A stretch of 64,000 nt of DNA, taken from a virus. Of the stretch, positions 1 to 17,332 are shown in pieces. The stretch lies in the IMG/VR virus record IMGVR_UViG_3300027877_000005. The stretch is one strand, 5' to 3'. Numbering within the stretch: position 1 is the stretch's first letter; each line of letters begins with the position of its first letter. The notes below the pieces were generated by a model that saw only the letters and a program-made list of their open reading frames with translations, had not been told where the DNA came from and did not search any database. The translations under genes were made by a program, and so were the position numbers.

Positions 1-30
1 TCCTAAAACAAAGATTTTAGGAGTTTTTTT
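1..30 (+). terminator. Possible intrinsic terminator of upstream gene
   Basis: TCCTAAAA/TTTTAGGA stem (1-8/15-22) followed by G and a T7 run; the stem is AT-rich. Confidence 0.4.
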
Positions 31-103
31 ATTTTAATAAAATCTTTATTTTATAAAGTTTACGTATTGCGTGAAGATTTACTTATATCAGTAAAATTGT
101 CTG

Positions 104-140
104 GTACCTGTACCAAATACATGAACCGGAGTACATGTAC
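104..140. repeat. Two GTAC-NN-GTAC boxes
   Basis: GTACCTGTAC at 104-113 and GTACATGTAC at 131-140; the same motif recurs at 12.6-17.3 kb. Confidence 0.8.
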
Positions 141-184
141 CTTAGCCCGGGTTCCGATATAGAGTTTTTTGGGTCAAGTCAGGG

Positions 185-213
185 TTGACAGGATACAAGT
201 ATTTTGGTATCCT
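185..213 (+). promoter_or_regulatory. sigma70/SigA-type promoter of the ligase operon
   Basis: TTGACA (185-190), 17-bp spacer, TG-G-TATCCT (208-213). Confidence 0.6.
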
Positions 214-268
214 TAATGTGGGTAAAATATTGCCTAAATTTTCTAAAAACTTTTTAGGAGAAAACTTT

Positions 269-445
269 ATGGAAAAACTTTTACGAATATCCGATATGAA
301 AGAATTTATTACATTGGGAAATAAAATGATGAAAGAATTATTCTCCAATGCAGTAAAAGATTATAAACCACCTAAACCTAAAAAATATACACATTATATA
401 ATATTTGGATGTAATCCAGATGGGAGAAAAGATTATGGAATATGA
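269..445 (+). CDS. Hypothetical protein (58 aa)
   Basis: AGGAG RBS before ATG 269; the track start (TTG 185) is the -35 box. Confidence 0.6.
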   Translation: MEKLLRISDMKEFITLGNKMMKELFSNAVKDYKPPKPKKYTHYIIFGCNPDGRKDYGI

Positions 446-2279: not shown

Positions 2280-2282
2280 ACT

Positions 2283-3461: not shown

Positions 3462-4176
3462 AGGAAGTTATCTTAGTGCTAGACTTTTAGCTACATTATT
3501 AGGATTAAAACCAATATCTAGTCCTGAAAAAATAATTAATGGTAAAGTTAGTGTAAGATATGGAAACTCATCAGGAAACTTTTCTGAAGATACTTTGATA
3601 AACTCACCTGATGTAATAAAATTATGTAGTGATAGTTTAAGATTTTCTCAATGGTGTTTAGAGAATGGATTTAATAGTCCAATATTTGAATTATATAATC
3701 CAGATAAAAATGATTATGAGTATCCATTCTTGCTAAGGAAAAAGTATCATAAACAAGGTGATGATATAATTTTAGTAGATAATCCTGATAAAATAAAGGA
3801 AGCAGATAGTCTTGAAAAAAGATTTCATGTTCCTTTTGTTGAAACAGATTATGAATTAGGAATACATTTAGTAAATAGGAAAGTGATAAAGATTTTCAAG
3901 AAAGTTTCTAATAGTGAAAGTAGTGGATTTATTAGAAATCAAAAGAGAGGTTATCACTTTCATATTATAAATGATATAGATAATAATTTCAAGACAGCAC
4001 AAGATATTTGTCAAAGTTTATTTGAAAAAATGGGCTTAAATTTTGGAAGAGTAGATATCGCATATAATATAAAGAGTAAAAGATATATTATATGGGAAGT
4101 TAATACTGCACCAGGACTAAATCAATTAACCTCAGAAATTTATGCCCAAATTCTGAGGGAATTAATTTATGTTTAG
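3433..4176 (+). CDS. ATP-grasp ligase (phiEco32/RimK-like)
   Basis: YPFLLRK, FGRVDIA and WEVNTAPGL ATP-grasp C-terminal motifs. Confidence 0.85.
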   Translation: MLMNYLLYNKGSYLSARLLATLLGLKPISSPEKIINGKVSVRYGNSSGNFSEDTLINSPDVIKLCSDSLRFSQWCLENGFNSPIFELYNPDKNDYEYPFLLRKKYHKQGDDIILVDNPDKIKEADSLEKRFHVPFVETDYELGIHLVNRKVIKIFKKVSNSESSGFIRNQKRGYHFHIINDIDNNFKTAQDICQSLFEKMGLNFGRVDIAYNIKSKRYIIWEVNTAPGLNQLTSEIYAQILRELIYV

Positions 4177-4969
4177 AAACTTTATAGGACAAAAGAAGAT
4201 TATATTGGAATTAGAATCAATTTCTATAAAATTGAAAAATAATTTTGAAGGAGTAAATATTTTATTAAGAGGACAAGCTGGTTGTGGAAAAACTTTACTA
4301 GCAAAAAGTTTTCTAAATAATTTAGGTGAATATGTTTTTCAACTACCAAATAGAAACTCTAAATATGAATTACTTTGGAATAATAAAATTGCTGAATATA
4401 AATTTCATTTTGTAGATGAAATACATACTATATCACATATGGAAGTTTTATATCCAATAATGGATAGTAAAAAATATGTATTTGTATTTGCTAGTAATGA
4501 ATATGGAGATTTGCCAGATGCTTTTTTATCAAGAAATTTTGTATATTTCTTTGCTGAATATAGTTCTGAAGAAATTTCTAATATAGTTGTAGAATATGCT
4601 AAATCTAAAAATATTTTCTTGGAAGTAACTCTAGCAGATTTATTTGCTAAATATTCTAGAAACAATCCTAGAATAGTAAAGAATTTGTTTGATAGAGTTT
4701 TATTTATAATTAACAGGGGATATTACAAACTAAATTCTAGAGGAATATTATCTGCTCTAAATGATATTGGAATATATGATGGTGGATATACTGATTTAGA
4801 TATGAATTATCTACAAACTATAAAGAATTTAGGTGTAGCAAGTATTGACAGTATTTGTAGGATAATGAAAATTGATAAAAATACTATAGCAAATGAAATT
4901 GAGCCATTCTTAATATCTAAAGGACATATAGTAATAAGTCCTAGAGGGAGAAAGTTTATCAAATGGTAA
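4169..4969 (+). CDS. ruvB: RuvB-like AAA+ ATPase with C-terminal winged helix
   Basis: Walker A GQAGCGKT, Walker B FVDEIH, EVLYPIMD, SRNNPRI, C-terminal IEPFLISKGHIVISPRGRK typical of RuvB. Confidence 0.8.
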   Translation: MFRNFIGQKKIILELESISIKLKNNFEGVNILLRGQAGCGKTLLAKSFLNNLGEYVFQLPNRNSKYELLWNNKIAEYKFHFVDEIHTISHMEVLYPIMDSKKYVFVFASNEYGDLPDAFLSRNFVYFFAEYSSEEISNIVVEYAKSKNIFLEVTLADLFAKYSRNNPRIVKNLFDRVLFIINRGYYKLNSRGILSALNDIGIYDGGYTDLDMNYLQTIKNLGVASIDSICRIMKIDKNTIANEIEPFLISKGHIVISPRGRKFIKW

Positions 4970-6267
4970 CTCTTGTAAAAGATAACACAACAGTTGAATT
5001 AAATTCTTTAACATATTCATTAAAATCAAGAATAAGTGGATACTTAGCAGATGATATAGATAGAAGTCAAATGAGGCTTTGGATATTACTTAATACAAAA
5101 TCTGTATTTGCAATAACTATCTCTAAAACTTTAATGGGGAGTATGTGCATTAAAGTTGAAATGGATAGTAAGACAACATTAAAAGAACATGAAGTTAGTT
5201 TAGAAAAAATATATGAAAATGTAACTAATTTTCTTGCAGAATATCCTGATGTAAAGAAAGTTTTACTAGATGGAGAATATAAAGTATTTGCTATATGTAA
5301 CGATGCTAATGATTTTGTTCCCTATAAATTATCAGAAAGAAAGTTAGTAGAAGTAAATATAAATAATGTTTACCCTTTAGTTGATTCTATACAAAAAGTA
5401 GATGATGATTATTTTATATGTGCTTTTCCTGATATTCTCTTTTCAGTAGATAAATATACAACATTAAATCTGATTTGTATATTGGTAAAATATTATGTAG
5501 AAACTAGATTTCCAGTAATTGATAAAAATAGATTAGAAGATAAACAAATAATTAGTTTACCATCATTTACATTATGGGTTTATCATATAAAATCTTTATT
5601 GAAAGCTACTTGTAGCACAACTTATTCAGTAAAGAATTATTATGATAATATGAGTAAAATGAATATGTTAGCACATGTTCCAGCTAATAATTGGTGGATA
5701 GAAGAAAGTACACTAAAATTAGATACAAAAAGATTAATGGATTTTATTGCTAAGAAAGAAAGTAATATTATAGTAGTTAAAGATGATATTGATATGAAAG
5801 ATAATCCTGAAAAAGTAGATGAAATAGAAGAAATTGTAACACCTTATATTCCAGAATATTTCTCCCATGCTTTTATGGATGATGATTTACAAATAATGGA
5901 ATGGAGAGATTTTTTAGACGAATTCAATCGTTATGAAAGTAGTTATAAACAGTTTGATAGATATAATTTTGACATATTTGTTTCATCTATTATTATAGTT
6001 CCTACTGAAAATATTGGTAGTGTAGATAAGAACGATATAATCTTTTTAGGATTTGATGGTGGTAAATTTTATCTAACAATTAATTCTAAAGAAGAAGGTA
6101 AAGCTTTAACTTCTAATGAGGTAAACTTGAAAAATACTTTACAGGGATACTTTTGGAGAAAGTTTGGCTATGAAGTAGAAACAGTATTTGAAACTATGAC
6201 AGAAGATGATACTAAAAATTGTAATGTAAATTTATCATTCTTTCAAGATGGGTATATAGGAGAATAA
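4963..6267 (+). CDS. Hypothetical protein (434 aa)
   Basis: Long ORF overlapping the ruvB stop, in operon; no family recognised. Confidence 0.8.
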   Translation: MVTLVKDNTTVELNSLTYSLKSRISGYLADDIDRSQMRLWILLNTKSVFAITISKTLMGSMCIKVEMDSKTTLKEHEVSLEKIYENVTNFLAEYPDVKKVLLDGEYKVFAICNDANDFVPYKLSERKLVEVNINNVYPLVDSIQKVDDDYFICAFPDILFSVDKYTTLNLICILVKYYVETRFPVIDKNRLEDKQIISLPSFTLWVYHIKSLLKATCSTTYSVKNYYDNMSKMNMLAHVPANNWWIEESTLKLDTKRLMDFIAKKESNIIVVKDDIDMKDNPEKVDEIEEIVTPYIPEYFSHAFMDDDLQIMEWRDFLDEFNRYESSYKQFDRYNFDIFVSSIIIVPTENIGSVDKNDIIFLGFDGGKFYLTINSKEEGKALTSNEVNLKNTLQGYFWRKFGYEVETVFETMTEDDTKNCNVNLSFFQDGYIGE

Positions 6268-6268
6268 A

Positions 6269-6694
6269 ATGTTTTACTGCCCAAAGTGTGAATGTAAAGT
6301 ATATCCCGAAGTATCTATAAAGAATATTCAATCTGATTATTCTGTAAACTTATTTACTAACTGTGTAAATTTAGCTTTATGTGCTCTAGGAAATTTTCAA
6401 AATTTAGAGGTCACAGGATATAGATGTCCTCATTGTGGTAAAATATTTGAGCAAACTAGTTTATATATGAGAAGTCAAATTAGTAGTAAGATTGATAAAA
6501 TGGAAAAGTTTTTAATAGTTTCTGTAAAAAATAAGAAAGAGGAATATATAGATAATCATTTAGTTTTAGTAATTCCTCCAAGAATTATTCATGAAAGTGA
6601 ATTAGATTATTATAAAACATTCAATCCTTATAATGATGACAAGTATCTTATTATTAATAGACTAAATAAAATTACAGTTACTACTCCAAAATAA
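6269..6694 (+). CDS. Zinc-ribbon protein
   Basis: CPKC near the N-terminus and CPHC pair. Confidence 0.7.
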   Translation: MFYCPKCECKVYPEVSIKNIQSDYSVNLFTNCVNLALCALGNFQNLEVTGYRCPHCGKIFEQTSLYMRSQISSKIDKMEKFLIVSVKNKKEEYIDNHLVLVIPPRIIHESELDYYKTFNPYNDDKYLIINRLNKITVTTPK

Positions 6695-6704
6695 GAGGTG
6701 AAAA

Positions 6705-7700
6705 ATGGAACAACAAAGATTTTATGGAAGTGACCCCGAATACTTTATTTATATGAAAAAGAAGGAAACAGATTTTGGAACAATTCCTTTAATAGTTCCT
6801 CCAGCAGCTTTATTTGCAGATATGGGTGTAAAGTTTACCACATCTCCAAATGGTAAAAGAGTTTTGTTAGAAGAAGCTGATTATAGATTTATTGAAGATG
6901 GTGCAGCTCTAGAATTAAATTTCAAAAGACCATTGGCTAATTCTCAGGATATAAATAATATTTTATATAGTGCTTTAGATAATATTGATTATAAATTACG
7001 TCACATTAATTATGAATTGAAGATATCCAAAGATGTACTGGGATATTTTAGTGTAATTAAATACTGGAAAAATAGAGATAAATCTTTTACTGATTGTGTT
7101 AGATTTGGATGTGACCCAGACCAATTTCCTGAACTTTATATTATAAATGGTTTTGAAGAAGAAAATTGTAAAATAATTGATGCTTCAAAACATAATTATA
7201 GATATGCTGGTGGACATTTACATGTACAAAATATGTCTAAAGATAGTGATGTATATTATAGATATATGGAATTAGCACCAATTGTATTTGATTTTATTGT
7301 AGGAACAACTAATATTTTATTTCAAAGAGATAATAAAATTTTGACTCAAGAAAAAGCACGTCTAATATATTATGGAAGACCCGGCAGAATTCGTTTACAA
7401 AAATATTCTGATACAGTAAATGGTATAGAATATAGACCTCCAAGTAATCAATGGATAAATAATGGATATAATGTAAATTCAATGTTATATTCTGCTGATA
7501 TTGCAGCATCAATCATTGAAGATAATGGTGCACCTAAATTCTTTTCAGCATTTCAAGATAGAGTATTTGATATGTGGAAAGCATTAACAAATCATGATAG
7601 AGCAAAATCTAAAAATCTTCTTTTAGATAGTTTATCATGGGCATTAGATAATCACTATATTACTATCTTTCAATTGGAGAAAATCTATGGACAACTTTAA
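6705..7700 (+). CDS. phiEco32-like COOH-NH2 ligase type 2
   Basis: YGSDPEYF, EDGAALELN, FGCDPD, RYAGGHLH, YYGRPGRIR, GIEYRPPSN. Confidence 0.88.
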   Translation: MEQQRFYGSDPEYFIYMKKKETDFGTIPLIVPPAALFADMGVKFTTSPNGKRVLLEEADYRFIEDGAALELNFKRPLANSQDINNILYSALDNIDYKLRHINYELKISKDVLGYFSVIKYWKNRDKSFTDCVRFGCDPDQFPELYIINGFEEENCKIIDASKHNYRYAGGHLHVQNMSKDSDVYYRYMELAPIVFDFIVGTTNILFQRDNKILTQEKARLIYYGRPGRIRLQKYSDTVNGIEYRPPSNQWINNGYNVNSMLYSADIAASIIEDNGAPKFFSAFQDRVFDMWKALTNHDRAKSKNLLLDSLSWALDNHYITIFQLEKIYGQL

Positions 7701-8499
7701 TGATTATTTAAAACATAATAATGAAATTTTATCAAGTTTATCTTCAATTGCTTATGACGGACATGTTGGCAGTAGTTCTGTTGTATTTAGTTTTGATTAT
7801 AAACCTATTATTACAGATGTTTGTTTCGCTAGAATGTACAGTCAAATAAAAGAAGCAAAATATAAAAGAGAATTTTCATCTAATTATATTATGAGAATGC
7901 CTTATCTAAAAGAAGATAAAGATGAAACTTTACATGCAAATTATGTAGATTATCCTACATTCTTTAAGAATTTACAAGAATTAATGGAAGATACTTATAA
8001 GATAACTGTATATGATACTGATTATAGAAATATAAAGTTTGTATCAATGGAAAGTAAAATTGAATTACCTTTAGATTTAAATTATTGTTTAACCTTAGTA
8101 TTATATACAATGATTAGGGGTATAGAAGGAGAGAATAATTATTCTTTGAGAAAACGTTTTAGTAAAACAATTTTACTAAGTGGAGATATCAAAGAATATT
8201 TATATACAACTTCTAAAGAAAATAGGGGTTCACATCATAATGTAAGTGATTCTTTAGATAAAATAGCTAACCATAATAATTTACCAGAAGAATTCAAAGA
8301 GAAAATTTTTGAAAATTATGTTAAAACATTAAAGATAACCTTTGGTAAAGATGGATTAATTCATAATCCTGAATACATAAAGTATTTTGAAGGATTTTTT
8401 GATAAAAAACCTAATGGATATGGTAATGCTATGCAAACTAAATCATTTGATTATATAAATCTAACCACAAATAGAATTATACGGGAGAGTTTACAATGA
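7687..8499 (+). CDS. Hypothetical protein (270 aa)
   Basis: Coupled ORF between the ligase and the glutaminase. Confidence 0.75.
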   Translation: MDNFNDYLKHNNEILSSLSSIAYDGHVGSSSVVFSFDYKPIITDVCFARMYSQIKEAKYKREFSSNYIMRMPYLKEDKDETLHANYVDYPTFFKNLQELMEDTYKITVYDTDYRNIKFVSMESKIELPLDLNYCLTLVLYTMIRGIEGENNYSLRKRFSKTILLSGDIKEYLYTTSKENRGSHHNVSDSLDKIANHNNLPEEFKEKIFENYVKTLKITFGKDGLIHNPEYIKYFEGFFDKKPNGYGNAMQTKSFDYINLTTNRIIRESLQ

Positions 8500-9134
8500 T
8501 TAATATTGGAGTTTCTAAGATGGGAATGAACCCACCTTCATTTTATAATAGATTATTGAACTCAGCATTTAAGAGTATAAATATTAATACAAATGAATGT
8601 GCTGTAGAATATGTAAACTTTGATAGTCCATATGATTATATTCTATTTGATGGTGGAAGTGATGTTTCACCTGAATTTTATGGAGAAGAAAATATACATT
8701 CTTATATTGATAAACTTAGAGATGATTATGAAAAGAGTATATTTGAACATTATAAAGATACTACAACAAAATTTACAGGAATTTGTAGAGGACATCAATT
8801 TCTAAATGTAATGTATGGAGGAACTTTAATACAAAATCTTGGAAGTTGTTTATTATCTCATCCTGCTTATCATTATATTAGAGTAAGTGGAATGATAGAA
8901 AATAGTTTTAAGAATATTTTACCAAGAATGACTGAAGTAAATTCCATGCATCATCAAGCTGTAAATAAATTAGCAAAAAATTTATATGCAATTGCTTTTG
9001 AGCCTCATACTTCTATCATAGAAGTTTATGGTGAAATGGATGATAAAGTAAGAGCAGTACAATTTCATCCAGAATTTGCTAATTCATTTCCTTATACTAA
9101 AGAAATTTTAGCATGGTTGTTTAGGATTTTATAA
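8496..9134 (+). CDS. Peptidase C26 / class I glutamine amidotransferase (PuuD-like gamma-glutamyl hydrolase)
   Basis: DGGSDVSPEFYGE, GICRGHQFLNV (catalytic Cys), VNSMHHQAV, VQFHPE (His-x-Glu). Confidence 0.9.
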   Translation: MINIGVSKMGMNPPSFYNRLLNSAFKSININTNECAVEYVNFDSPYDYILFDGGSDVSPEFYGEENIHSYIDKLRDDYEKSIFEHYKDTTTKFTGICRGHQFLNVMYGGTLIQNLGSCLLSHPAYHYIRVSGMIENSFKNILPRMTEVNSMHHQAVNKLAKNLYAIAFEPHTSIIEVYGEMDDKVRAVQFHPEFANSFPYTKEILAWLFRIL

Positions 9135-9199
9135 TAATAAATCGTGAGGTAAGTTAGACAAATGAATACATATTAAATATTTTCTTATCGGAGGTTAAT

Positions 9200-9499
9200 A
9201 TGAAACATACTAATAAACGTTTGGAGGAAAGATTTAATATAACAATTGATAGGAAAACATTAAAGAAATTAAATGCCAATATACAAGATATAGATAATTC
9301 TATTCCTTGCATGTTTATAAAAAGGAAGAGTAATAGATTATCTGAATGGTTAATCTTAGTAAATAATAGGTGGACAATTTGTTACTATGATAAGAATAAA
9401 AATAGTATTGTCACCTTTATTGATAATAGTATCCTTGAAAAGTTTGAATTAATAGAAAGGTGTATGGAATTATGGAAAGTAAAAACAAGCCATGTTTAG
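9200..9499 (+). CDS. Hypothetical protein
   Basis: GGAGG RBS, 99-aa ORF. Confidence 0.7.
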   Translation: MKHTNKRLEERFNITIDRKTLKKLNANIQDIDNSIPCMFIKRKSNRLSEWLILVNNRWTICYYDKNKNSIVTFIDNSILEKFELIERCMELWKVKTSHV

Positions 9500-9825
9500 T
9501 CTTACAATATAATCCTACTAATGATGAAGTTATAGGAATTGAATTAACTACTACTTATAATTATTGGGAAAAAGAAGCATTTATAGATATGAATAAAAGA
9601 CAATTATTCCCATGTAAAGTAGACGGAATAAAGTATAAAGATTACAGTACATGGTTTAATAATATAAGAATGTGTCCAATTTCTGATGAAATATTAAAGA
9701 AAATAGAAAGTATAAAAAGTTCATTGAATAGTTTATCTCACTTTACTTCTGCACCGGGAAGTTCTTTTGGCAATAGTGTTTATAAAATTAATTTTCCTAA
9801 AGTTTTTTACCCAGGTTATGACTAA
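9460..9825 (+). CDS. Hypothetical protein
   Basis: 121-aa ORF in operon; start uncertain. Confidence 0.65.
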   Translation: MYGIMESKNKPCLVLQYNPTNDEVIGIELTTTYNYWEKEAFIDMNKRQLFPCKVDGIKYKDYSTWFNNIRMCPISDEILKKIESIKSSLNSLSHFTSAPGSSFGNSVYKINFPKVFYPGYD

Positions 9826-9840
9826 ATTTTGGAGGACAAA

Positions 9841-10236
9841 ATGATTGAATTCGAAAAAGCTGGTAAAATTTACCAAATTACATTCTATTTTCCTGATAAA
9901 CATAGTGAATTATATCGGCGGTATACTCATGCCAAATTATCTATCAAAATTATAAATGAAGAAAATCCTAACGATTATGCTTGGGAAACTATTGATGAAA
10001 CATTTGCTAAATGTAATATTTATTGTGATGAATTTAATAAAAATAGGGGTAGGTTTCAGGCTCTAACTAATCTATCTAATAGTGTTTTGTTTAGGGATAT
10101 GTTCAATAAATATGATAGGAAAATGATTTGGGAAAAATACTTTGAAAAGTATGGATATCCCCCAAAGAATAAAGCAATTTCCTATGAAAGATTAGTATAT
10201 CTTCTAACCCATAGAAAACATAGTCGTAAAGATTAG
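9841..10236 (+). CDS. Hypothetical protein
   Basis: GGAGG RBS before ATG 9841. Confidence 0.7.
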   Translation: MIEFEKAGKIYQITFYFPDKHSELYRRYTHAKLSIKIINEENPNDYAWETIDETFAKCNIYCDEFNKNRGRFQALTNLSNSVLFRDMFNKYDRKMIWEKYFEKYGYPPKNKAISYERLVYLLTHRKHSRKD

Positions 10237-10242
10237 TTAGAT

Positions 10243-10279
10243 AAAAAAGACTGCCCATAGTTTATTCTATGGGCAGTCT
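10243..10279 (-). terminator. 13-bp perfect hairpin with U-tract on the minus strand
   Basis: AGACTGCCCATAG-TTTATT-CTATGGGCAGTCT preceded by A6 on +. Confidence 0.55.
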
Positions 10280-10301
10280 ATCCCAAACTTTGGAGGAAAC
10301 A

Positions 10302-10487
10302 ATGTTGCCATTCAGTAAAGAATTAAAAGTTATATCTAAAATATTATTGCCTGATGAAACTTATCATATTAAATTACAAGAAGAATTAGAGAATAAAGAT
10401 AAAGTAAAAAGACACCAACCTAAATATTCTGAAGAAGATTATAAAGAATTGATTGATGATAAAATTTTAGGAATATTGGGAGGATAA
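10302..10487 (+). CDS. Hypothetical protein (61 aa)
   Basis: GGAGG RBS before ATG 10302; the track start 10269 lies inside the hairpin. Confidence 0.6.
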   Translation: MLPFSKELKVISKILLPDETYHIKLQEELENKDKVKRHQPKYSEEDYKELIDDKILGILGG

Positions 10488-10489
10488 TT

Positions 10490-10663
10490 ATGTTTACAAT
10501 AACTATTACATACTTAGTTGATGGTAATCCTGAAACATATACTGTAAAGAATGTATCTGAAATTCATACTAATTATAATAAAACTACATATAAAGTAGGT
10601 GATGATGAGTATGTATGTTATTATGTAATAAAAATTAAATGTAAACTTCAGATGGAAAACTAA
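10490..10663 (+). CDS. Small hypothetical protein (57 aa, not in ORF track)
   Basis: GGAGG RBS; MFTITITYLVDGNPETY...QMEN; fills the operon gap. Confidence 0.6.
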   Translation: MFTITITYLVDGNPETYTVKNVSEIHTNYNKTTYKVGDDEYVCYYVIKIKCKLQMEN

Positions 10664-10664
10664 T

Positions 10665-10748
10665 ATGATAAATGAATGGTTATTAATTATCATTATAATA
10701 ATCTTTACAGCAGGATATTTAGTGGGAAAGGAAAATAAAGATGACTGA
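10665..10748 (+). CDS. 27-aa single-TM peptide
   Basis: MINEWLLIIIIIIFTAGYLVGKENKDD; coupled to both neighbours. Confidence 0.5.
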   Translation: MINEWLLIIIIIIFTAGYLVGKENKDD

Positions 10749-10956
10749 TAATTCTTGGATGAGCCAATATATATTATCATTAAGAAAAGAATCTATAAAA
10801 GAATTAATGGATGAAATGTTAATGTATCATAGAATTTATATACTCAATGGGGAAAAGATGCCATCTAAAGAATTCACTCTATATAAAGAATGTCAAAGTG
10901 AATTGATAAAACGGTATGTAACTATAAAAGATATGGTGAATGGAGAAAACAAATGA
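10741..10956 (+). CDS. Hypothetical protein
   Basis: 71-aa ORF, ATGA overlap with the next gene. Confidence 0.65.
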   Translation: MTDNSWMSQYILSLRKESIKELMDEMLMYHRIYILNGEKMPSKEFTLYKECQSELIKRYVTIKDMVNGENK

Positions 10957-11732
10957 TTACAAAAAGTATAATAAATAAAGTTGGATTAGAAGCTGAGGTA
11001 TTAATTCGTAGTAAAAAGAACGAATTAGTAATTCCATCTGATTATAATTTACCCTGTGATGATTTTATAGTATTAGGTGAAATAAGAGCACCTGCAAAAG
11101 ATAATATTCCAGATACTTTATATGCTTTCATGAAAGAATTTTATATGTTTAATAAATCCCTTGAATACTTTAACTTTCATACTGATATAGAAAAAGGATG
11201 GGCTACAATTAGCCCTGAAGATTATACAAATATTTTACGTAAAATGGGTAGTAAAGAAATTGCTACTTGTAAAAATATATATAAGAATGTTGATATTCTA
11301 AAATTGACAGATGCCAATGTATCAGATGGAAAGATTTTATCCCATAATATTTCTACAGGATTACATATACACTTTTCTTCTGATATAGTTGTTCATAATA
11401 TATATCATGTTCCTGATATGTATCAAGTAAAGAATAATTTATTTGTACATTCTGCCCAAGATAAAAGATTTGATGAAGAAACTAAAATATATTCTTTACT
11501 AACAAATAATGCTATTCGTAGTATTATATCTGCTTTTGATAAAGATATCTTTCCTAAATATAATATTGAAAATGTAACTCTAAAATATCGTAAGCCGGGA
11601 TTTTATGAAGAAAAATCTTGGGGATTTGAATATAGAAGTTTACCTTTTAATCAATTAGTATATGATAATCTAACAGAAATTGTAGAATATGCTTTTAATA
11701 GGTTAGATAAGTTATCCAAAGTTCTGGTGTAA
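10953..11732 (+). CDS. Third glutamine-synthetase-fold carboxylate-amine ligase
   Basis: VGLEAEV (ExE), LGEIRA, TGLHIHFS, YRKPG, WGFEYRSLP. Confidence 0.75.
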   Translation: MITKSIINKVGLEAEVLIRSKKNELVIPSDYNLPCDDFIVLGEIRAPAKDNIPDTLYAFMKEFYMFNKSLEYFNFHTDIEKGWATISPEDYTNILRKMGSKEIATCKNIYKNVDILKLTDANVSDGKILSHNISTGLHIHFSSDIVVHNIYHVPDMYQVKNNLFVHSAQDKRFDEETKIYSLLTNNAIRSIISAFDKDIFPKYNIENVTLKYRKPGFYEEKSWGFEYRSLPFNQLVYDNLTEIVEYAFNRLDKLSKVLV

Positions 11733-11733
11733 A

Positions 11734-11934
11734 ATGAATATTTATAAAGTAACCGTAGAATATTCTAAACAATCTGGTAGAGATATAGTCTTAGCTAAAA
11801 GTGTATATGAAAATGTTAGAATGTGTTTAGTTGCTGAAAATTATATACGCATATTAGAGAAGGGTAAATTAGAGATTAAAAAGATTTCATATGAAAGAAT
11901 TTGGTCAGTAAAGATTGAAAGGGAAATAGGATGA
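11734..11934 (+). CDS. Hypothetical protein
   Basis: 66-aa ORF coupled to its neighbours. Confidence 0.6.
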   Translation: MNIYKVTVEYSKQSGRDIVLAKSVYENVRMCLVAENYIRILEKGKLEIKKISYERIWSVKIEREIG

Positions 11935-12041
11935 TAACAATTCCTTTAGAACTTCTAGTTATGTTTATTGTATTTATTATATTCTGTATAGTAATGATGA
12001 TAGTATGGTTTATATTAGCTTTAATTATAAAAAAGATATGA
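11931..12041 (+). CDS. 36-aa hydrophobic membrane peptide (not in ORF track)
   Basis: MITIPLELLVMFIVFIIFCIVMMIVWFILALIIKKI; ATGA overlaps at both ends. Confidence 0.55.
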   Translation: MITIPLELLVMFIVFIIFCIVMMIVWFILALIIKKI

Positions 12042-12202
12042 AACCATTACCTTCTAAATTAGCTTTATGGATAAATGCTTGGCTAGAATTAGTAGATGCT
12101 ATATTATGTATATTATCCTTTACATTAATAAGAACATCATTTAGTTATAGATTTATAGTATGGGATTGTATACAGGTAGCAAAGAGTAAACAAAATAGGT
12201 AA
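12038..12202 (+). CDS. Small hypothetical protein
   Basis: ATGA overlap with the upstream peptide gives start 12038 (MKPLPSKL). Confidence 0.55.
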   Translation: MKPLPSKLALWINAWLELVDAILCILSFTLIRTSFSYRFIVWDCIQVAKSKQNR

Positions 12203-12576
12203 TATTTGTATACTACAAACTCATATCTAATTTCATAATTTCTAAAATTTGTTATCGGTCAGTTTGTAAAACTTTGCTGTTACTAAAACCCCCCAAATAA
12301 ACTTTAGAAAATTCCTAAAATATGCTATAAAGGAGAATTTATATGAAATAAAATGAATAAATAAAGATAAACAATAATTATTTATCAAATTTATAAAGCA
12401 ACAAAATATACCCATAAATATAGAATGATATACCATGTATGATATATACGCACATACATGGAAGTAAAGTTTATTTACCAGTTTGTAAACTTTTACTGTT
12501 ACTATTATTGAATATATAAAGTTTATGGTTCAGATAAAGTTTAGTCAGGTATAAAGTTTATTGATAAACAAAGTTT

Positions 12577-12608
12577 AGCCAGCCGCTTGGTTCAGGGCTG
12601 GCTTTTTT
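12577..12608 (+). terminator. Intrinsic terminator
   Basis: AGCCAGCC/GGCTGGCT stem then T6. Confidence 0.75.
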
Positions 12609-12880
12609 GTTACCTGTACTCACTGCTGGGTACCTGTACCCCTGGGTCACACAGGCACAAATTCTGTAGGTACCTGTACTGTTTGTATACATGGCTAGGT
12701 ACCTGTACTCAATCTTTAAGGTACAGCCCGGCTCCCGGGTTCTAGAACCAGCCCTGAGTCAAGTCATTCGTACTGGTACAGATTTCGTGCTATACTTTTA
12801 CATAGGCAGAAAAACGCCTATCGCCTGGTTCAATCCAACCATATCGAAAATGAACCAGGGTACATATACAGGAGGTGTAT

Positions 12881-13258
12881 ATGAAAAAGAATGATAGTGT
12901 GTCCGTACCAAAGGTAGACGCTGTACAGAAAGCGGTATTCAGCACCGTATTCGCTATACTGTACAACCCTGCCAAGCCACGTGACCCAGCAATCAAATCT
13001 GATTCACCATCCAGAGATGATGTACCATGGGTTGTTATTATACCAGACCTGTCTGTTGTAGCTACTGTATTAGACAAGGATGGCGACCCAGTATGTGGTC
13101 ACGTGAACCCGCAGTACGCATCAGCATATGCTGGTCGTCTGTATAATCGCCTGGTTCAAAACCCTGAATTGCTTGATTCATATAGGAAGAACCCAGACGT
13201 GTATCCAATCAATCGTGGGTACATGGGTAAAATGATTCCTATTCAATTTGAGGTCTAG
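12881..13258 (+). CDS. Hypothetical protein
   Basis: GGAGG RBS before ATG 12881; extended -10 TGCTATACT at 12788-12796. Confidence 0.75.
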   Translation: MKKNDSVSVPKVDAVQKAVFSTVFAILYNPAKPRDPAIKSDSPSRDDVPWVVIIPDLSVVATVLDKDGDPVCGHVNPQYASAYAGRLYNRLVQNPELLDSYRKNPDVYPINRGYMGKMIPIQFEV

Positions 13259-13270
13259 ATGAGGTGAACC

Positions 13271-13399
13271 ATGATTACTAATACTAATAAACTCAAGATG
13301 AATCAGACCCTGCGGCGGGGTCAGCTTGACAATATCAAACGCCGCACCCCAAAAGCCAAAAAGACCCATAAAGGAGGTTCACATGGCAAACACAAGTAA
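13271..13399 (+). CDS. 42-aa basic peptide (not in ORF track)
   Basis: GAGGTG RBS; MITNTNKLKMNQTLRRGQLDNIKRRTPKAKKTHKGGSHGKHK. Confidence 0.55.
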   Translation: MITNTNKLKMNQTLRRGQLDNIKRRTPKAKKTHKGGSHGKHK

Positions 13400-13946
13400 T
13401 CCTACCAAAGCATCACCTACTGTACTGGTTCTGCCATCACCGCACCGCATTTCAGGTGACGTTGATGCTATGCTTGAATCAACCGTTGCAGAACGGTTCA
13501 AGACCATCATTCTGGTAAAGAATGGTGAGAAAGATACTGGTAAGGGACAGTTGGTTCTGTCTCATACTCCCGATTCAAAAGACCCCAATGTACAGGTTAG
13601 CACCTGGAATGCGGGTCTAGGTCATCTGTTACGGTTCGTGCAAGCGGGGGTCAATGCATGGACTAGCGGTGTTGGTCTATCAGGTGATGGGTCAGCGATG
13701 TACGTTGCTAATACTGCTGACACCGTGTTCAAAACCGTACCCCAGCTCAAGGGTTACGACATCGTGCTGGTTCCGAATGGTCGTGCTGGAACAGCCAAAT
13801 ACCGCATCCCGGTGCCTGAATTGGTAAGCCAAATCCTGAACCGTGCCAAGGTTATTAGCACCTGCGTTGAAGCCTTTGGTATCGCTCAGGGTAAGGAACG
13901 TACCAAAAAGGCTACTGATGCACCGCAGATTACAGCTATACTCTAA
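13383..13946 (+). CDS. Hypothetical protein (187 aa)
   Basis: AAGGAGG RBS before ATG 13383 (MANTSNP). Confidence 0.8.
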   Translation: MANTSNPTKASPTVLVLPSPHRISGDVDAMLESTVAERFKTIILVKNGEKDTGKGQLVLSHTPDSKDPNVQVSTWNAGLGHLLRFVQAGVNAWTSGVGLSGDGSAMYVANTADTVFKTVPQLKGYDIVLVPNGRAGTAKYRIPVPELVSQILNRAKVISTCVEAFGIAQGKERTKKATDAPQITAIL

Positions 13947-14030
13947 TCTGCCAGTTTCTGAACCCGGGCAGTTATACAGCTACCCGGGTTCCCATCTCCA
14001 TACCACCATTCGTTACAAAGGAGTTTTACT

Positions 14031-14282
14031 ATGCCACGAACTGCCAAACCTAAGACTGCACCAGCAGTACAGCCACAACAGCCCTTCATTACTGGCGACC
14101 CACACGCAGGTACGCCAGAGAATCAATTGGTTATATATAACTACATGATGGGTCTGACCCCTGAGCAACAGGGTATTGTACGTGGGTTACTTAAATCCAT
14201 GCAAGCGGGCGGGTACAAAAACGGTTGTCACTACCTGAAAGCGTTTTTCAATGACCGACCCACACCGGTTCAGCTAGCGTAA
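14031..14282 (+). CDS. Hypothetical protein (83 aa)
   Basis: AAGGAG RBS. Confidence 0.7.
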   Translation: MPRTAKPKTAPAVQPQQPFITGDPHAGTPENQLVIYNYMMGLTPEQQGIVRGLLKSMQAGGYKNGCHYLKAFFNDRPTPVQLA

Positions 14283-14296
14283 GCACCGGTACATCC

Positions 14297-14366
14297 AACT
14301 GGGTTGGGTTCAGAGGCTACCACACCGCAACGAACCCACGATCCGGGTTCAGAGCCTAACCCAGTT
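14297..14366 (+). ncRNA. Putative structured RNA element (unclassified)
   Basis: 15-bp outer stem with two G-U pairs on + enclosing a GAACCC/GGGTTC hairpin. Confidence 0.35.
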
Positions 14367-14450
14367 ACCCCTGCACCAACGTTACATATATAGGAGACAA
14401 CAACATGACGTGAACCATGGGTGGTATACCTTATAGCCACTAATTGAATT

Positions 14451-14483
14451 GACCCCCGCCTGGGACAGCGGGGGCATTTTTTT
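14451..14483 (+). terminator. Intrinsic terminator
   Basis: CCCCCGC/GCGGGGG stem then T7. Confidence 0.8.
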
Positions 14484-14554
14484 ACTTGTACCCAGGAGAT
14501 GGGTACCTGTACTGGGTTCCGGGCGCCGGGCAGGGGATGGGTACCAGAATGCCT

Positions 14555-14580
14555 GAGTACATGCACAAGTGCATGTACTC
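14555..14580. repeat. Perfect 12-bp inverted repeat GAGTACATGCAC-AA-GTGCATGTACTC
   Basis: Read directly; upstream of promoter 14646. Confidence 0.85.
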
Positions 14581-14645
14581 ACGATTTCTGGTTCATGTAT
14601 AAGTACAAGCACCAGATGATTGTAAAAATTGGTCTAAAAATGCCA

Positions 14646-14674
14646 TTGACGTGGTACGGTATCCCTGGTATAAT
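14646..14674 (+). promoter_or_regulatory. sigma70/SigA promoter
   Basis: TTGACG, 17 bp, TG-G-TATAAT. Confidence 0.8.
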
Positions 14675-14722
14675 TGCTCTGTAAGAGTTAAAATCCAACC
14701 TGAACCAGCAAAGGAGATTGAA

Positions 14723-15442
14723 ATGAAAACCAAGTTACATGCACCAGTTGATGAAGTTGACCCACTAGCAGAACGGAACCAGCTAGTAGATACACTCATC
14801 AATACATCGTTTCAGCTATCCGCTACGGGTACGATATTCACCATTGGTACAGAATCGAATCCCAGTTGGGAGGACATCTTATTCGTTCTGAACCGCCTGT
14901 ACACTACCGGTTACGCTGAAGAGTTCAAACTTCTCCCATTCAATGTTGAACCAGCAATACTTGTATCAGGCTTGTCAAAGGAAGTAGTGGCATGGCTGGT
15001 TCCGCTCATCATTCAGGCGATTGATAGGAAAGTGATGGGTTCAGAGATTGATATCTTAGCCCCCAATAACAAAAACCTGGTACGTTTGGCTGATGTCCTT
15101 GGGTGGTATTGGTATCACACGTTACATGGACCCAAGCCTGTGGTCAATCAGTTAGTGAGCATTGAGCGGCACCATAAGGTGGTTCAGAACGCTTCTCTGA
15201 GTTGCCCATTGTGCTACCACCAGTTCATACCAGCACCCGGTTATAAGACCCAATCTGAAAAGGCATTTGCATTTGCCAAGTGGCTACCGACCCACCTGGT
15301 TCATACCCACATGTTTACTGATACAAGTAAAACAAGCGTTGCCAAGTGTACTTGTGGTACGTGTTCAGGTAAAATCACAAAATACACAGGCGACCCAGTT
15401 AAGAACCGCAAGCTGTTACAGAAGAAAGGTGGTACAAAATGA
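14723..15442 (+). CDS. Hypothetical protein with C-terminal Cys/His zinc-binding motifs
   Basis: AAGGAG RBS before ATG 14723; CPLC...HLVHTH and CTCGTC. Confidence 0.75.
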   Translation: MKTKLHAPVDEVDPLAERNQLVDTLINTSFQLSATGTIFTIGTESNPSWEDILFVLNRLYTTGYAEEFKLLPFNVEPAILVSGLSKEVVAWLVPLIIQAIDRKVMGSEIDILAPNNKNLVRLADVLGWYWYHTLHGPKPVVNQLVSIERHHKVVQNASLSCPLCYHQFIPAPGYKTQSEKAFAFAKWLPTHLVHTHMFTDTSKTSVAKCTCGTCSGKITKYTGDPVKNRKLLQKKGGTK

Positions 15443-15639
15443 GAAAGGTGATTGTGTATACAAAAACCTTGACTGTGTTACTTGTAATCGTAGATAGGTA
15501 CAGGAATGGTAAGTGTGTCAGTCATGCCTATCCAAATCCGTACCCAGCATCAGTTCAACGCTTGATGAAGTTACTTGAGAACCGTGATTCTGAGGTCAGT
15601 GGAGCAAGGGGGGTACTTATACTCACATTCAGTTTCTGA
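15439..15639 (+). CDS. Hypothetical protein (66 aa)
   Basis: ATGA overlap; its stop codon lies inside motif A. Confidence 0.7.
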   Translation: MRKVIVYTKTLTVLLVIVDRYRNGKCVSHAYPNPYPASVQRLMKLLENRDSEVSGARGVLILTFSF

Positions 15640-15656
15640 ACCGTAGCAGTTACATA

Positions 15657-15687
15657 AACCCTGGTGTATGAACCAGGGTTCTTTTTT
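15657..15687 (+). terminator. Intrinsic terminator
   Basis: AACCCTGG/CCAGGGTT stem then C and T6. Confidence 0.75.
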
Positions 15688-15766
15688 GCCTGGGAACCAA
15701 GGCTGGGTACCTGTACTCACCCTCCCTGGGTCAACCTGAAATGAGTTTGTGGGTACCAGAGACCCT

Positions 15767-15790
15767 GAGTACAAGTATATACTTGTACTC
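15767..15790. repeat. Perfect 24-bp palindrome GAGTACAAGTATATACTTGTACTC
   Basis: Read directly; ends 24 bp before the -35 of promoter 15814. Confidence 0.85.
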
Positions 15791-15813
15791 AAGATTCTTG
15801 GGTCGATTGCCTC

Positions 15814-15842
15814 TTGACAACCTGGAACCAGTATGCTAAAAT
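15814..15842 (+). promoter_or_regulatory. sigma70/SigA promoter
   Basis: TTGACA, 17 bp, TG-C-TAAAAT. Confidence 0.8.
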
Positions 15843-15853
15843 AAAGAGAAAAA

Positions 15854-16444
15854 ATGGAGACTAACATGATAATTTGGACATTAATTGGCATATTTATACA
15901 GTGGGTCGGTAAACTCTTCAAGAGGGCAGACGTACTCTTTATAGGGTACTACCTAGCTGGGTCAGGTAAGACACGCTCATTACCAGTATATGTACACGAA
16001 GCTGTATTGAATGAGCTTGGGTGGTTACGTCAATACTGTCATCCTGATACATATATAGTCCACCGGTTTGATAATCTAGTGTTATTCCATACCATAGGAA
16101 AGTGTTGGGTCAAGAAAGACGGCGACCTTATCTATATCAAGGATAGGTACATGTTCTACCCACTTTGTCCCGATAGTGATACTCATTTCAGCGATTGTGG
16201 GTGCAAACCTGAATGGAAAGTATACTCAAGTCTAACCAAGCATATGTATATCACACCACAACGATATACTGATAAATTATTGAATTCAAGATTTAGATAC
16301 TTACACTTCCACCGAACCATGGGTAGATTCATATCTGTTACTGCTGATATATGGGGTATCAAGTACGAAATCAATGATGAGTTTTGGGTCAACAAGGGTA
16401 AGCCATTCGATGTGTACTCTGAGATACCTATATATCATATCTGA
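15854..16444 (+). CDS. Hypothetical protein (196 aa)
   Basis: ORF directly after promoter 15814; no family recognised. Confidence 0.7.
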   Translation: METNMIIWTLIGIFIQWVGKLFKRADVLFIGYYLAGSGKTRSLPVYVHEAVLNELGWLRQYCHPDTYIVHRFDNLVLFHTIGKCWVKKDGDLIYIKDRYMFYPLCPDSDTHFSDCGCKPEWKVYSSLTKHMYITPQRYTDKLLNSRFRYLHFHRTMGRFISVTADIWGIKYEINDEFWVNKGKPFDVYSEIPIYHI

Positions 16445-16473
16445 TACCAGTTTGTATGAGGGTGCAGTTACAT

Positions 16474-16503
16474 AATGTGGGTTGGTGTGAACCGACCCAC
16501 ATT
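16474..16503 (+). other. 13-bp RNA hairpin with GNRA (GUGA) loop, no U-tract
   Basis: AATGTGGGTTGGT-GTGA-ACCGACCCACATT, one U-G pair on +. Confidence 0.6.
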
Positions 16504-16633
16504 ACAGCCCCTGAATACGCTCATTGATACATGTACTCATCCTCTCTGGTGCTAATCATAATATGAGTCAATAGGTACCTGTACCATTAAAATAGAGTAC
16601 AGGAACTCATGCTTGCTGGTACAAAATTGCTTA

Positions 16634-16661
16634 TTGACAAATCTGTCCCAATCACTATAAT
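16634..16661 (+). promoter_or_regulatory. sigma70/SigA promoter
   Basis: TTGACA, 16 bp, TATAAT. Confidence 0.75.
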
Positions 16662-16684
16662 GTATAGTTAAGGAGAATAAAATC

Positions 16685-16954
16685 ATGAATAATAACCCGT
16701 TTTATTGTGTTGTACATCCTACTACATCCTTTATTAATTCCACTGGATTCCAGGCAGTGGATGATGTAGATGCTATCCAGAAAATGCTTGATGATATGAA
16801 AAGATTCAATCACAAGTATGCCATGCTGTACCGCTTGAATGGTACACGTTATCCATTCTTTGTATGTGTAATAAATTGCCATTTAGTTCCTGGTACAGCA
16901 GATGTATTCAATGACAATGTGACAGGAAAGGTGGTGCAGTTCCATCAAATGTAA
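16685..16954 (+). CDS. Hypothetical protein (89 aa)
   Basis: AAGGAG RBS after promoter 16634. Confidence 0.75.
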   Translation: MNNNPFYCVVHPTTSFINSTGFQAVDDVDAIQKMLDDMKRFNHKYAMLYRLNGTRYPFFVCVINCHLVPGTADVFNDNVTGKVVQFHQM

Positions 16955-16985
16955 ATACCAGTTTGTATTGGGGTGCGGTTATAAG

Positions 16986-17012
16986 AATGGGGTGGTTCCA
17001 TACCACCCCATT
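16986..17012 (+). other. 11-bp hairpin after motif A, no U-tract
   Basis: AATGGGGTGGT-TCCAT-ACCACCCCATT. Confidence 0.55.
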
Positions 17013-17332
17013 ACTATCCCCAAGATGAGAGGTAATAGGTACCTGTACCTGTTTGCCAGTTTGTAATGCGTTGCTGTTATGAGAGGCTCTGGTACGTTAG
17101 AATGAGAAAATATGGGTACCTGTACCTGTGAGTTTGTAATCCGAACCTGTTATGGTACTGCTGTATACATGTATGAGTTTGCACATAGGTACTTGTACCA
17201 AAAATCATGAGTACATGTACTCAGGGTATCTGGTTCCACCAGTTTGTAATCCGTTCCTGTTATGGGGCTTGGGTACATGTACCAGCAAAGCTGAGTACAT
17301 GTACTCTATTTACTTGGTATAGATGCTTAAAT

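Follow-up and report, generated by a model that had tools for sequence, protein, structure and literature searches.

A conserved, oriented two-part motif with a fixed 8-base gap marks gene ends in a freshwater siphophage and its relatives

The 64,000-nucleotide stretch of phage DNA analysed here (the window) carries a two-part motif of 24 bases with a fixed 8-base gap, CAGTTTSTR-N8-CDGTTAY (motif A), which is a real, conserved and oriented bipartite site of fixed register at gene ends and constitutes the conserved 5' boundary of a regulatory module of ~200-225 bp that recurs. The modules separate the transcription units of a regulon that occupies the distal end of the + arm in a ~93-kb freshwater siphophage: the ribonucleotide reductase (RNR) operon end, the amidoligase operon and an island of ORFan genes. 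The cores of the motif, CCAGTWT and GTTAY, keep a fixed 17-nt register, and every copy lies within the untranslated part of a + strand unit. Judging from the sequence, it is quite possible, if short of probable, that motif A is a sense-strand site for a predicted sequence-specific factor acting at transcript ends, through termination, read-through or 3'-end fate.

A pattern search of the + strand found eight exact copies in the window, starting at 12260, 12479, 13952, 15630, 16448, 16959, 17057 and 17240, and one copy at 17130 with a single mismatch (G replaces C at position 1); these correspond to the nine same-strand copies of the original prediction. No chance match was obtained in 100 dinucleotide shuffles of the window, and the enrichment over an island-composition background was borne out, since 2000 Markov simulations gave 0 matches and the count expected analytically is 3e-5. 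The claim that no copy occurs outside the island stood inside the window, but one more exact copy lies 25-48 nt upstream of position 1 (window -48 to -25), after the RNR gene. This tenth copy was read from the related contig L064 (7670-7693) and placed in the same phage on the basis of the 99.76% identity between L064 and window positions 1-10304; on this same identity, positions 1..30 (+) are the 3' part of the terminator belonging to it. Confinement of the motif to the island was contradicted, as motif A also marks the ends of the RNR operon, which a terminator-bearing copy closes just outside the window, and of the ligase operon, indicating a wider regulon. The motif is absent from the late (minus-strand) arm in the window search and from the 16.5 kb of the + arm upstream of the RNR-end copy, and its sites are limited to ~17 kb of the genome. 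Rfam covariance models gave no match on any motif A copy. The only Rfam signals were weak sub-threshold matches at terminators at 17.34-17.54 kb.

The search of the genome and its relatives yielded ~77 non-identical copies in 15 related metagenomic phage loci, all co-oriented with the genes and none antisense; only DNA contigs were found in the public runs searched. The invariant spacer length and variable spacer sequence proposed originally were recovered, with 8 nt in every copy: 173 kb of related loci contain 53 exact N8 copies, none with an N3-N7 or N9-N14 spacer and none on the minus strand. As the half-sites are conserved around a free spacer in a fixed register, among lineages 44-75% identical in the neighbouring proteins, direct selection by a reader is indicated rather than mere homology.

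Copy 1 (12260..12283, +, exact, CTGTTAC type) lies in an AT-rich untranslated stretch, 58 nt past the gene that ends the amidoligase operon, and its ortholog is present in all relatives covering that region. Copy 2 (12479..12502, +, exact, also CTGTTAC) starts 219 nt after copy 1, a distance that by position subtraction is 206-222 nt in 8 lineages. It is followed by four AAAGTTTA repeats (12518..12577, +, period 17-18 nt), read from the sequence and conserved in alignment A1, whose core AGTTT resembles half-site 1 of the motif, and then by an intrinsic terminator (12577..12608, +, stem AGCCAGCC/GGCTGGCT plus a T-run). The position of this terminator, which closes the amidoligase operon and its untranslated tail, is also conserved in alignment A1. 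Copy 3 (13952..13975, +, exact, CAGTTAT) is intercistronic, 6 nt past the stop of the 187-aa gene, and its spacer is the 5' arm of a hairpin (13960..13991, +) with GTTAY in the loop. Copy 4 (15630..15653, +, CAGTTAC) includes the TGA stop of a 66-aa gene as motif positions 8-10 and precedes by 3 nt an intrinsic terminator (15657..15687, +) with a 9-bp stem, a 6-nt loop and a CTTTTTTG tail. Copies 5 (16448..16471, +, CAGTTAC) and 6 (16959..16982, +, CGGTTAT) lie 4 nt past the stop of a 196-aa gene and 5 nt past that of an 89-aa gene, respectively, and directly 3' of them are hairpins lacking a T-run, of 14 bp (16473..16504, +) and 11 bp (16986..17012, +). The four stop codons reported near the motif (ending at 13946, at 15639 inside the motif, at 16444 and at 16954) were all found, as were the three following hairpins (15657-15680 with a T-run, ~16473-16504 and 16986-17012), to which that of the copy at 13952 is added. 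The context said to be shared by copies 5 and 6 comprises 37 nt at 76% identity (family D4).

The last three copies form a gene-less array: copy 7 (17057..17080, +, CTGTTAT) is 7 nt past a GGTACCTGTACC box, copy 8 (17130..17153, +, CTGTTAT, with the G at position 1) is 3 nt past a GTAC box, and copy 9 (17240..17263, +, CTGTTAT) occupies the -35/-10 promoter place of full modules in alignment A5. The module order, conserved in paralogous and orthologous copies (module alignment A5), is motif A, hairpin or intrinsic terminator, GTAC-palindrome operator boxes, sigma-70 promoter and ribosome-binding site. For instance, a GTAC-palindrome operator block at 15705..15812 lies between the terminator and the promoter of its module, the latter being the near-consensus sigma-70 promoter of the next unit (15814..15842, +, 11-12/12 consensus matches). 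Equivalent palindrome blocks occur at 14501-14600, 16574-16625, 12628-12711 and 101-140, and further sigma-70 promoters at 14646-14674 and 16634-16661. An island terminator at 14453 has no neighbouring motif A.

Position 19 of the motif splits the copies into two contexts, 39 with A/G19 and 38 with T19. CAGTTAC-type copies are found just past stop codons and adjoin or overlap hairpins, and nearly all of the 24 copies starting -12 to +10 nt from a stop codon belong to the A/G19 class; CTGTTAY copies are located in AT-rich untranslated regions or in arrays interleaved with GTAC boxes. A strong hairpin is present at 32/39 A/G19 copies, adjoining or overlapping the motif in 30/39, with its 5' arm starting inside motif A in 15/39 and 1-6 nt after it in 15/39. 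At least 4 T occur in the next 8 nt at 14/39, and many of the hairpins are intrinsic terminators. Compared by class, hairpin association is 28/39 for A/G19 vs 5/38 for T19 (Fisher p = 2e-7). At orthologous sites of the 13960-13991 hairpin in 10 lineages, 92.5% of cells are paired and compensatory changes occur in 9 of 12 pairs, a result reached by 0/500 shuffles; GTTAC is invariant in the loop, and the G-U pairs are on the + (sense) strand. Among T19 copies, TAnnnT is found at +13 to +15 in 20/38 against a background of ~9%, many of these matches being the AT-rich AAAGTTTA repeat itself.

The original prediction had envisaged a protein-recognised site with one of three roles: site-specific recombination at cassette ends, RNA processing or termination that depends on a factor, or use by a phage-specific polymerase. 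Termination or RNA processing fits best, because 30/39 CAGTTAC-type copies adjoin or overlap a strong hairpin and the intercistronic hairpin covaries, while a phage polymerase and attC-like recombination are disfavoured. We infer that a factor binds motif A, that it reads the RNA form, and that binding affects termination or decay. A putative sequence-specific factor, probably phage-encoded, would read the motif at the end of each unit, with recognition favoured in the transcript, where the motif follows the stop codon and precedes the terminator hairpin or else lies within the intercistronic hairpin. The bound factor could set terminator efficiency, read-through or 3'-end stability, and this shared reading may place the regulon under common temporal control. 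Counting against this reading, motif A ends 1-6 nt before the stem in most terminator-type copies, so that simple competition with the 5' arm of the terminator could not account for an effect. A strictly invariant 8-nt spacer is commoner in the recognition of double-stranded DNA than of single-stranded RNA, which counts against RNA reading. The conserved island proteins had no Pfam or PHROG match, and the 187-aa protein and a 239-aa protein (C-x2-C...H-x4-H), when folded, had no fold match. A more specific version, which we regard as rather doubtful, is that motif A has the dedicated role of tagging transcript ends, as a bipartite RNA element that every regulon unit carries in its 3' untranslated end and that a phage protein would read; the conserved 239-aa C2H2-like zinc protein or the 187-aa protein would be example candidate readers, a joint proposal that is doubtful to the same degree. 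Such a reader would switch terminators or mRNA 3'-end stability regulon-wide at once and, if true, the tag would represent a new kind of phage temporal control, mixing nut/N, RegB and stoperator features.

Several other explanations were considered. An appreciable possibility, although we do not expect it to hold, is a double-stranded DNA operator of the stoperator kind, in which a phage DNA-binding protein (for instance a monomer carrying two reading heads) would bind the asymmetric 24-bp site and act on RNA polymerase in a polar manner, forming a roadblock where units end and serving as an operator where the position is promoter-like, maybe together with a binder of the GTAC palindromes. The invariant 8-bp spacing around a varying spacer suits this explanation, as do an orientation that strictly follows transcription and the location in short intergenic spaces, as for mycobacteriophage L5-type sites (PMC9283540). 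The alternation of CTGTTAY copies with operator-like GTAC palindromes and the 17240 copy at a promoter place point to action at the DNA level, and the TAnnnT excess at T19 copies may be added, although many of its matches are the repeat itself. However, a roadblock would be functionally redundant where an intrinsic terminator follows within 0-6 nt at the very end of a unit, no HTH repressor or DNA-binding protein was detected among the scanned conserved island and larger window genes, the sites lie within ~17 kb rather than genome-wide, and the fixed register of the motif with the covarying intercistronic hairpins would be left without a role. A tag for RNA decay or processing only, cleaved by an RNase E/Y-like or RegB-like endoribonuclease of the host or the phage so that loss of the protective 3' hairpin would clear regulon mRNAs at a set time, is quite improbable. 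In most units motif A follows the stop codon and precedes the 3' hairpin, and it is present in all regulon units, both of which agree with such a tag, and T4 RegB, which inactivates early mRNAs at a short motif, is a precedent; but endonuclease targets are not usually bipartite 24-nt sites of fixed gap, the array copies and those far from hairpins would stay unexplained, the island yielded no nuclease candidate, and this would be a special case of the preferred transcript-end factor rather than a separate mechanism. Highly improbable is a promoter for a phage transcription apparatus (single-subunit RNA polymerase, sigma factor or MotA-like activator) producing middle transcripts. Although the motif is ~24 bp, conserved, unidirectional and intergenic like T7-type promoters, and T19 copies often have the -10-like TAnnnT, with one at a promoter place, no RNA polymerase or sigma factor Pfam match was obtained among the called genes of contigs tiling the ~93-kb genome. 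Half of the copies are embedded in a hairpin or lie 0-6 nt before one, often a T-run terminator, and most are directly followed by a terminator; the array copies of the window face no gene. The spacing, read from the sequence, is also unlike sigma-70 family geometry, with half-sites 8-9 bp apart vs the 16-18 bp required, and the promoter scan missed motif A.

Between relatives, gene content does change at motif A. This turnover brings in a further alternative, that motif A is a recombination element with no other primary function, either an attC-like recombinase site or a conserved patch for homologous or illegitimate shuffling of ORFans, which we consider improbable. The ORFan island is hyperplastic, with small gene families changing position among relatives and units ending in motif A. 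In the related locus L031, copies at 3527 and 3943 enclose an extra 117-aa gene at the place of the single window copy at 15630, and several blastn homology blocks start or end inside motif A at 13974, 15643, 15647, 15653 and 16456. One metagenome run includes a minor strain variant that jumps from 16623 to 16978, its right joint being inside the copy at 16959-16982, and the PeSLs of T4-like phages, for which such shuffling has been proposed, offer a precedent (PMC2839356, PMC4122927). As to the coincidence of gene-gain or gene-loss breakpoints with the motif, several indel or replacement boundaries fall at motif A, in relatives too diverged to place crossovers and with no control for other conserved elements. 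Left breakpoints lie elsewhere, and one would in any case expect homology blocks to end at a patch that is the only conserved one. Against a recombinase site, the half-sites are direct and have no inverted symmetry, spacers differ among copies, no integrase or recombinase Pfam match was found among the called genes of the ~93-kb genome, and the cassettes own their sigma-70 promoters and terminators; the conservation pattern argues instead for direct selection by a reader. As a by-product of the preferred transcript-end function, motif A and the rest of the module may supply short homology for ORFan gene swaps between relatives.

Compared with known systems, integron attC sites resemble motif A in that they mark the 3' ends of short gene cassettes, share a single orientation and have conserved ends around a variable centre, but their inverted R/L boxes folding into a hairpin, variable length, integron integrase and promoterless cassettes have no counterpart here. 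The lambda nut site (boxA + boxB) is like the intercistronic motif A in combining a linear element with a conserved-loop hairpin (CCAGTWT, stem, GTTAC loop). It likewise lies between a gene and a terminator and is read, as proposed for motif A, on the sense transcript. However, motif A has by inspection no boxA similarity and no N-like protein is known here; the conserved-loop hairpin is found at intercistronic motif A only, whereas half-sites of the terminator type are linear with the terminator as hairpin, and stems differ; and nut sites follow promoters while motif A is at unit ends. Stoperators of Cluster A mycobacteriophages (L5 gp71-type) are asymmetric, multi-copy sites in short intergenic spaces near stop or start codons, also at promoter positions, with an orientation tied strictly to the direction of transcription and a reader protein with two independent reading domains (PMC9283540). 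Motif A shares the asymmetry, the many copies and the single orientation to transcription (~77 sense, 0 antisense), but stoperators are contiguous sites of 13-14 bp that temperate phages carry throughout the genome and that a known HTH immunity repressor binds, while motif A has 24 bp with a free 8-bp gap, a ~17-kb regulon and no HTH or repressor match among island proteins, and usually adjoins a terminator. Promoter-early stem-loops (PeSLs) of T4-like phages are repeated terminator/promoter modules that flank variable ORFans and coincide with indel boundaries (PMC2839356, PMC4122927). The PeSL is described as a compact stem-loop plus early promoter, whereas the ~200-bp module of the present siphovirus, which is unrelated to T4, has two extra conserved elements, with motif A preceding the stem-loop and GTAC operators following it; what both have in common is a repeated terminator-promoter composite between variable ORFan genes in a hyperplastic region.

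Motif A, the 24-base bipartite signal CAGTTTSTR-N8-CDGTTAY, is a genuine feature: it is highly non-random, conserved and structured. Eight exact copies occur in the window, all on the + strand, and a ninth, at 17130, deviates at position 1. Enrichment over an island-composition background, whose absence would have counted against the original prediction, was confirmed, as the composition of the ORFan-rich island alone gives an expectation of 3e-5 matches per strand and none was found across 2000 simulated islands; shuffled window sequence likewise gave no match. The distances between copies and stop codons listed in that prediction agree with the sequence, and the three hairpins that it placed after copies of the motif are present. 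Its statement that no copy lies outside the island holds within the window, but a tenth exact copy was located 25-48 nt before window position 1, 3' of the ribonucleotide reductase (RNR) gene and 5' of a terminator that extends into the window, where 1-30 is its 3' half. Two degenerate sequences were also noted. On the minus strand, 12199-12222 resembles an inverted motif A with three mismatches and shares bases with TGTATACT, a conserved extended -10-like element; this site is at the left edge of the island and is invariant in relatives (alignment A1, of the operon-tail region). Within the 239-aa gene, a motif A-like 24-mer at 15221-15244 codes for the conserved zinc-finger stretch QFIPAPGY, with two mismatches in the window and one in a relative (L046 1162), for which chance and function are both possible.

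Relatives were found via homologues of the 239-aa island protein (52-74% identity, and 44% in the most distant loci, L060 and L061), giving 15 non-redundant loci in metagenomes of freshwater, sediment and wetland origin. Every one of the 15 contains two to eight copies of motif A with at most one mismatch, about 77 non-identical copies in total, always on the gene strand and never on the other. The spacer measures 8 nt in 53 exact copies, with none of 3-7 or 9-14 nt, and half-site 1 is seldom alone, 53 of its 60 sense-strand occurrences being complete motifs. The information is concentrated in (A/G)C-CAGTTT, T8, A9, C18 and GTTA(C/T), while the spacer is free, and population variants within one metagenome are limited to position 7 and the spacer. 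Scans of IMG/VR returned only single, chance-level matches to motif A in 29 unrelated contigs and did not find the 239-aa protein, and an Rfam search gave nothing on the motif.

The window belongs to an uncultured tailed phage with sharp GC steps within one genome (25% in 1-12200, 45% in 12500-17300 and 35% in 17400-64000). An AT-rich (25% GC) + strand operon (405-12202) encodes amidoligase, ATP-grasp and glutamine amidotransferase enzymes, followed on the same strand by the island of small ORFans (12.2-17.3 kb, 45% GC); from 17.4 kb onward, the minus strand carries genes for a methyltransferase, an endolysin, tail proteins, a 1714-aa tape measure, the portal and the large terminase, and this late-gene arm meets the island convergently at 17.3-17.4 kb. 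In run X2, the AT-rich operon was covered to about one third of the depth of the island, which could reflect coverage bias or a sub-population. The public runs yielded DNA contigs only. No DNA similarity to the window was found among 50,697 deposited phages; the only matches were distant ones to the tape measure. Contig L064, from the same phage, matches window 1-10304 at 99.76% identity; contigs of this phage overlap the window, and the joined map is a two-arm genome whose size, estimated from contigs joined at the PolA gene, is roughly 93 kb. Its + arm runs through PolA, RecA, DnaB, nucleases, tRNA-like sequences, primase, methyltransferase, ribonucleotide reductase, the ligase operon and the island. 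The 16.5 kb of this arm upstream of the tenth copy contain no motif A (up to two mismatches) and no GTAC boxes, and no called gene of the roughly 93-kb genome has a Pfam match to RNA polymerase, sigma factor or integrase. A tRNA scan of the window found none; several tRNA-like sequences with GGTTCGAATCC-type T arms lie in an intergenic stretch of L064 (480-1190), some 7 kb 5' of window position 1, so the phage probably has tRNA genes outside the window.

Two contexts of motif A were distinguished by the base at position 19, with 39 copies of CAGTTAC type (A/G19) and the remainder reading CTGTTAY (T19). The 24 copies that start -12 to +10 nt from a stop codon are nearly all A/G19. A strong hairpin was recorded in 32 of the 39 A/G19 copies, its 5' arm inside the motif in 15 and 1-6 nt past it in 15, whereas only 10 of 39 T19 copies had one in the same census; by folding energy, the association was 28/39 versus 5/38 (Fisher p = 2e-7). 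Fourteen of the 39 A/G19 copies have at least four T in the next 8 nt and are therefore intrinsic terminators. T19 sites are located in the untranslated, AT-rich tail that closes the ligase operon, as two copies 206-222 nt apart adjoining AAAGTTTA repeats, as well as 3' of the RNR gene and in arrays alternating with GGTAC-NN-GTACC boxes. TAnnnT occurs at +13 to +15 in 20 of 38 T19 copies (background about 9%), many of these being the AT-rich repeat itself. The AAAGTTTA repeats (12518-12577, also 56-63) recur every 17-18 nt between motif A copy 2 and the terminator, a period equal to the register of the motif A half-sites; in relatives, this word takes up the spacer of the leader copies, and it also occurs once 3' of the off-window terminator. 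These repeats may be extra sites for a putative factor reading motif A, or iterons. In a related array (L038 4030-4200), each CTGTTAT copy precedes a GGAG-type purine-rich sequence and then an ATG with an immediate stop (ATGTGA, ATGTAA), which may represent vestigial gene starts or start-stop mini-ORFs.

Alignment of the orthologous motif A site 3' of the 187-aa gene in ten lineages revealed a common hairpin whose 5' arm is motif A positions 7-20; the loop invariably has GTTAC on its 5' side, and CCAGT invariably stands immediately before the stem. Pairing is kept in 92.5% of cells with double changes at 9 of 12 pairs, values that no shuffle or slid control approached, and wobble pairs take the G-U form on the sense strand. 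The same layout with unrelated stems is present in non-orthologous intercistronic copies (e.g. L034 10655, L047 2510, L050 8435, L055 3987 and L062 673). Pairing of half-site 1 RNA with the conserved upstream TACAAACT at 12214 was rejected, as relatives with CAGTTTC lack covariation.

The intergenic regions 3' of the copies at 15630, 16448, L041 2810, L041 3614 and L046 2040 share a module of about 200-225 bp, in which motif A is followed by a hairpin/terminator, a GGGTACCTGTACTC box, a second block of GTAC half-sites with a GAGTACATGTACTC-type palindrome, TGGGTCA, TTGACA-17-TAtAAT and a ribosome-binding site. The -35 lies about 185 bp downstream of motif A in four of the five. Region 14400-14730 is a full module minus motif A, and the right-end array repeats partial modules, with the 17240 copy in the promoter's place. 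Judged by sequence, the promoters at 14646, 15814 and 16634, all close to consensus, indicate transcription of the island units by host polymerase with its ordinary sigma factor. Clues to the host are these TTGACA/TATAAT promoters, ribosome-binding sites of Shine-Dalgarno type and, in relatives, a GH25+SH3 endolysin. GGTAC-NN-GTACC boxes and GAGTACATGTACTC-type palindromes (101-140, 12628-12711, 14501-14600, 15705-15812, 16574-16625 and 17038-17306) make up a conserved operator block that precedes each sigma-70 promoter in the regulon (RNR operon end, ligase operon and island units), probably bound by a dimeric regulator. A fixed composite of motif A and GTAC box was rejected, their gap varying from 3 to 14 nt.

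The island is organized around a conserved backbone of 125-, 42-, 187-, 83- and 239-aa genes, 3' of which the identity, number and order of small genes vary among relatives, with motif A closing each unit. Island proteins had no match in Pfam or PHROGs. The 239-aa ORFan (14723-15442) is present in all relatives with C161, C164, H191 and H196 invariant (C-x2-C...H-x4-H, C2H2-like), making it a candidate nucleic-acid binder; the predicted structures of the 239-aa (pLDDT 70) and 187-aa (pLDDT 69) proteins had no significant match in PDB or AlphaFold clusters, and Atlas look-ups were empty or under its lead threshold. One relative, L031, has an additional 117-aa gene between two motif A copies where the window has one copy, several nucleotide homology blocks start or stop within the motif, and one metagenome run includes a minor strain variant that jumps from 16623 to 16978, the right joint falling within a motif copy. 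In this variant (depth 12 versus about 80), the promoter and the 89-aa gene are missing or replaced, and linked SNPs occur just downstream (17009-17050). Such turnover fits what has been described of PeSL modules among the T4-like phages (PMC2839356, PMC4122927). This does not make motif A a recombinase site: its half-sites are direct, not inverted, spacers vary from copy to copy, no recombinase is seen among the called genes, and every unit carries a promoter and a terminator of its own.

What remains, as far as sequence can indicate, is that motif A would be a recognition site for a sequence-specific factor with polar action at unit ends. We tentatively place this recognition in the transcript, including a decay-tag variant as a sub-case, a reading we hold at somewhat below even chances, because every copy lies in a sense, untranslated segment, A/G19 copies exactly span stop codon to terminator stem, and intercistronic copies sit within covarying hairpins in fixed register. 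Recognition as duplex DNA, as an operator or stoperator, is rated less likely; the absolutely invariant half-site spacing, the alternation of copies with operator-like palindromes, the array copy at promoter position (17240) and the precedent of stoperators (PMC9283540) speak for it. A phage-polymerase promoter is unlikely given the lack of a polymerase or sigma Pfam match among the called genes, the terminators directly 3' of the motif and a geometry wrong for the sigma-70 family; by inspection, sigma-70, ECF and sigma-54 promoters in either orientation were rejected on spacing. Motif A also resembles the T7 class II pause signal (ATCTGTT), the Tus Ter core and the B. subtilis PhoP box, which we take to be coincidental.

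The timing of phage gene expression is understood in few model phages only. Here, an uncultured freshwater and wetland phage lineage has a strictly oriented, fixed-register operon-end motif linked both to terminators and to a second operator system, that of the GTAC boxes, which is of interest for both phage regulation and ORFan turnover. The motif and its conserved neighboring proteins are unlike anything catalogued (in Rfam for the motif, in Pfam and PHROG for the proteins, and in fold searches for two of them), and a reader protein, if found, would provide a regulatory principle for 3'-end control of a regulon and functions for several ORFan families. As its modules probably mark ORFan exchange points, the locus would be a clear natural example, outside the T4 group, of regulatory repeats organizing a hyperplastic region. 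Motif A is not yet evidence for a categorically new system; it belongs, as a new variant, with the known intergenic regulatory repeats of phages, such as stoperators, PeSLs and nut-like sites.
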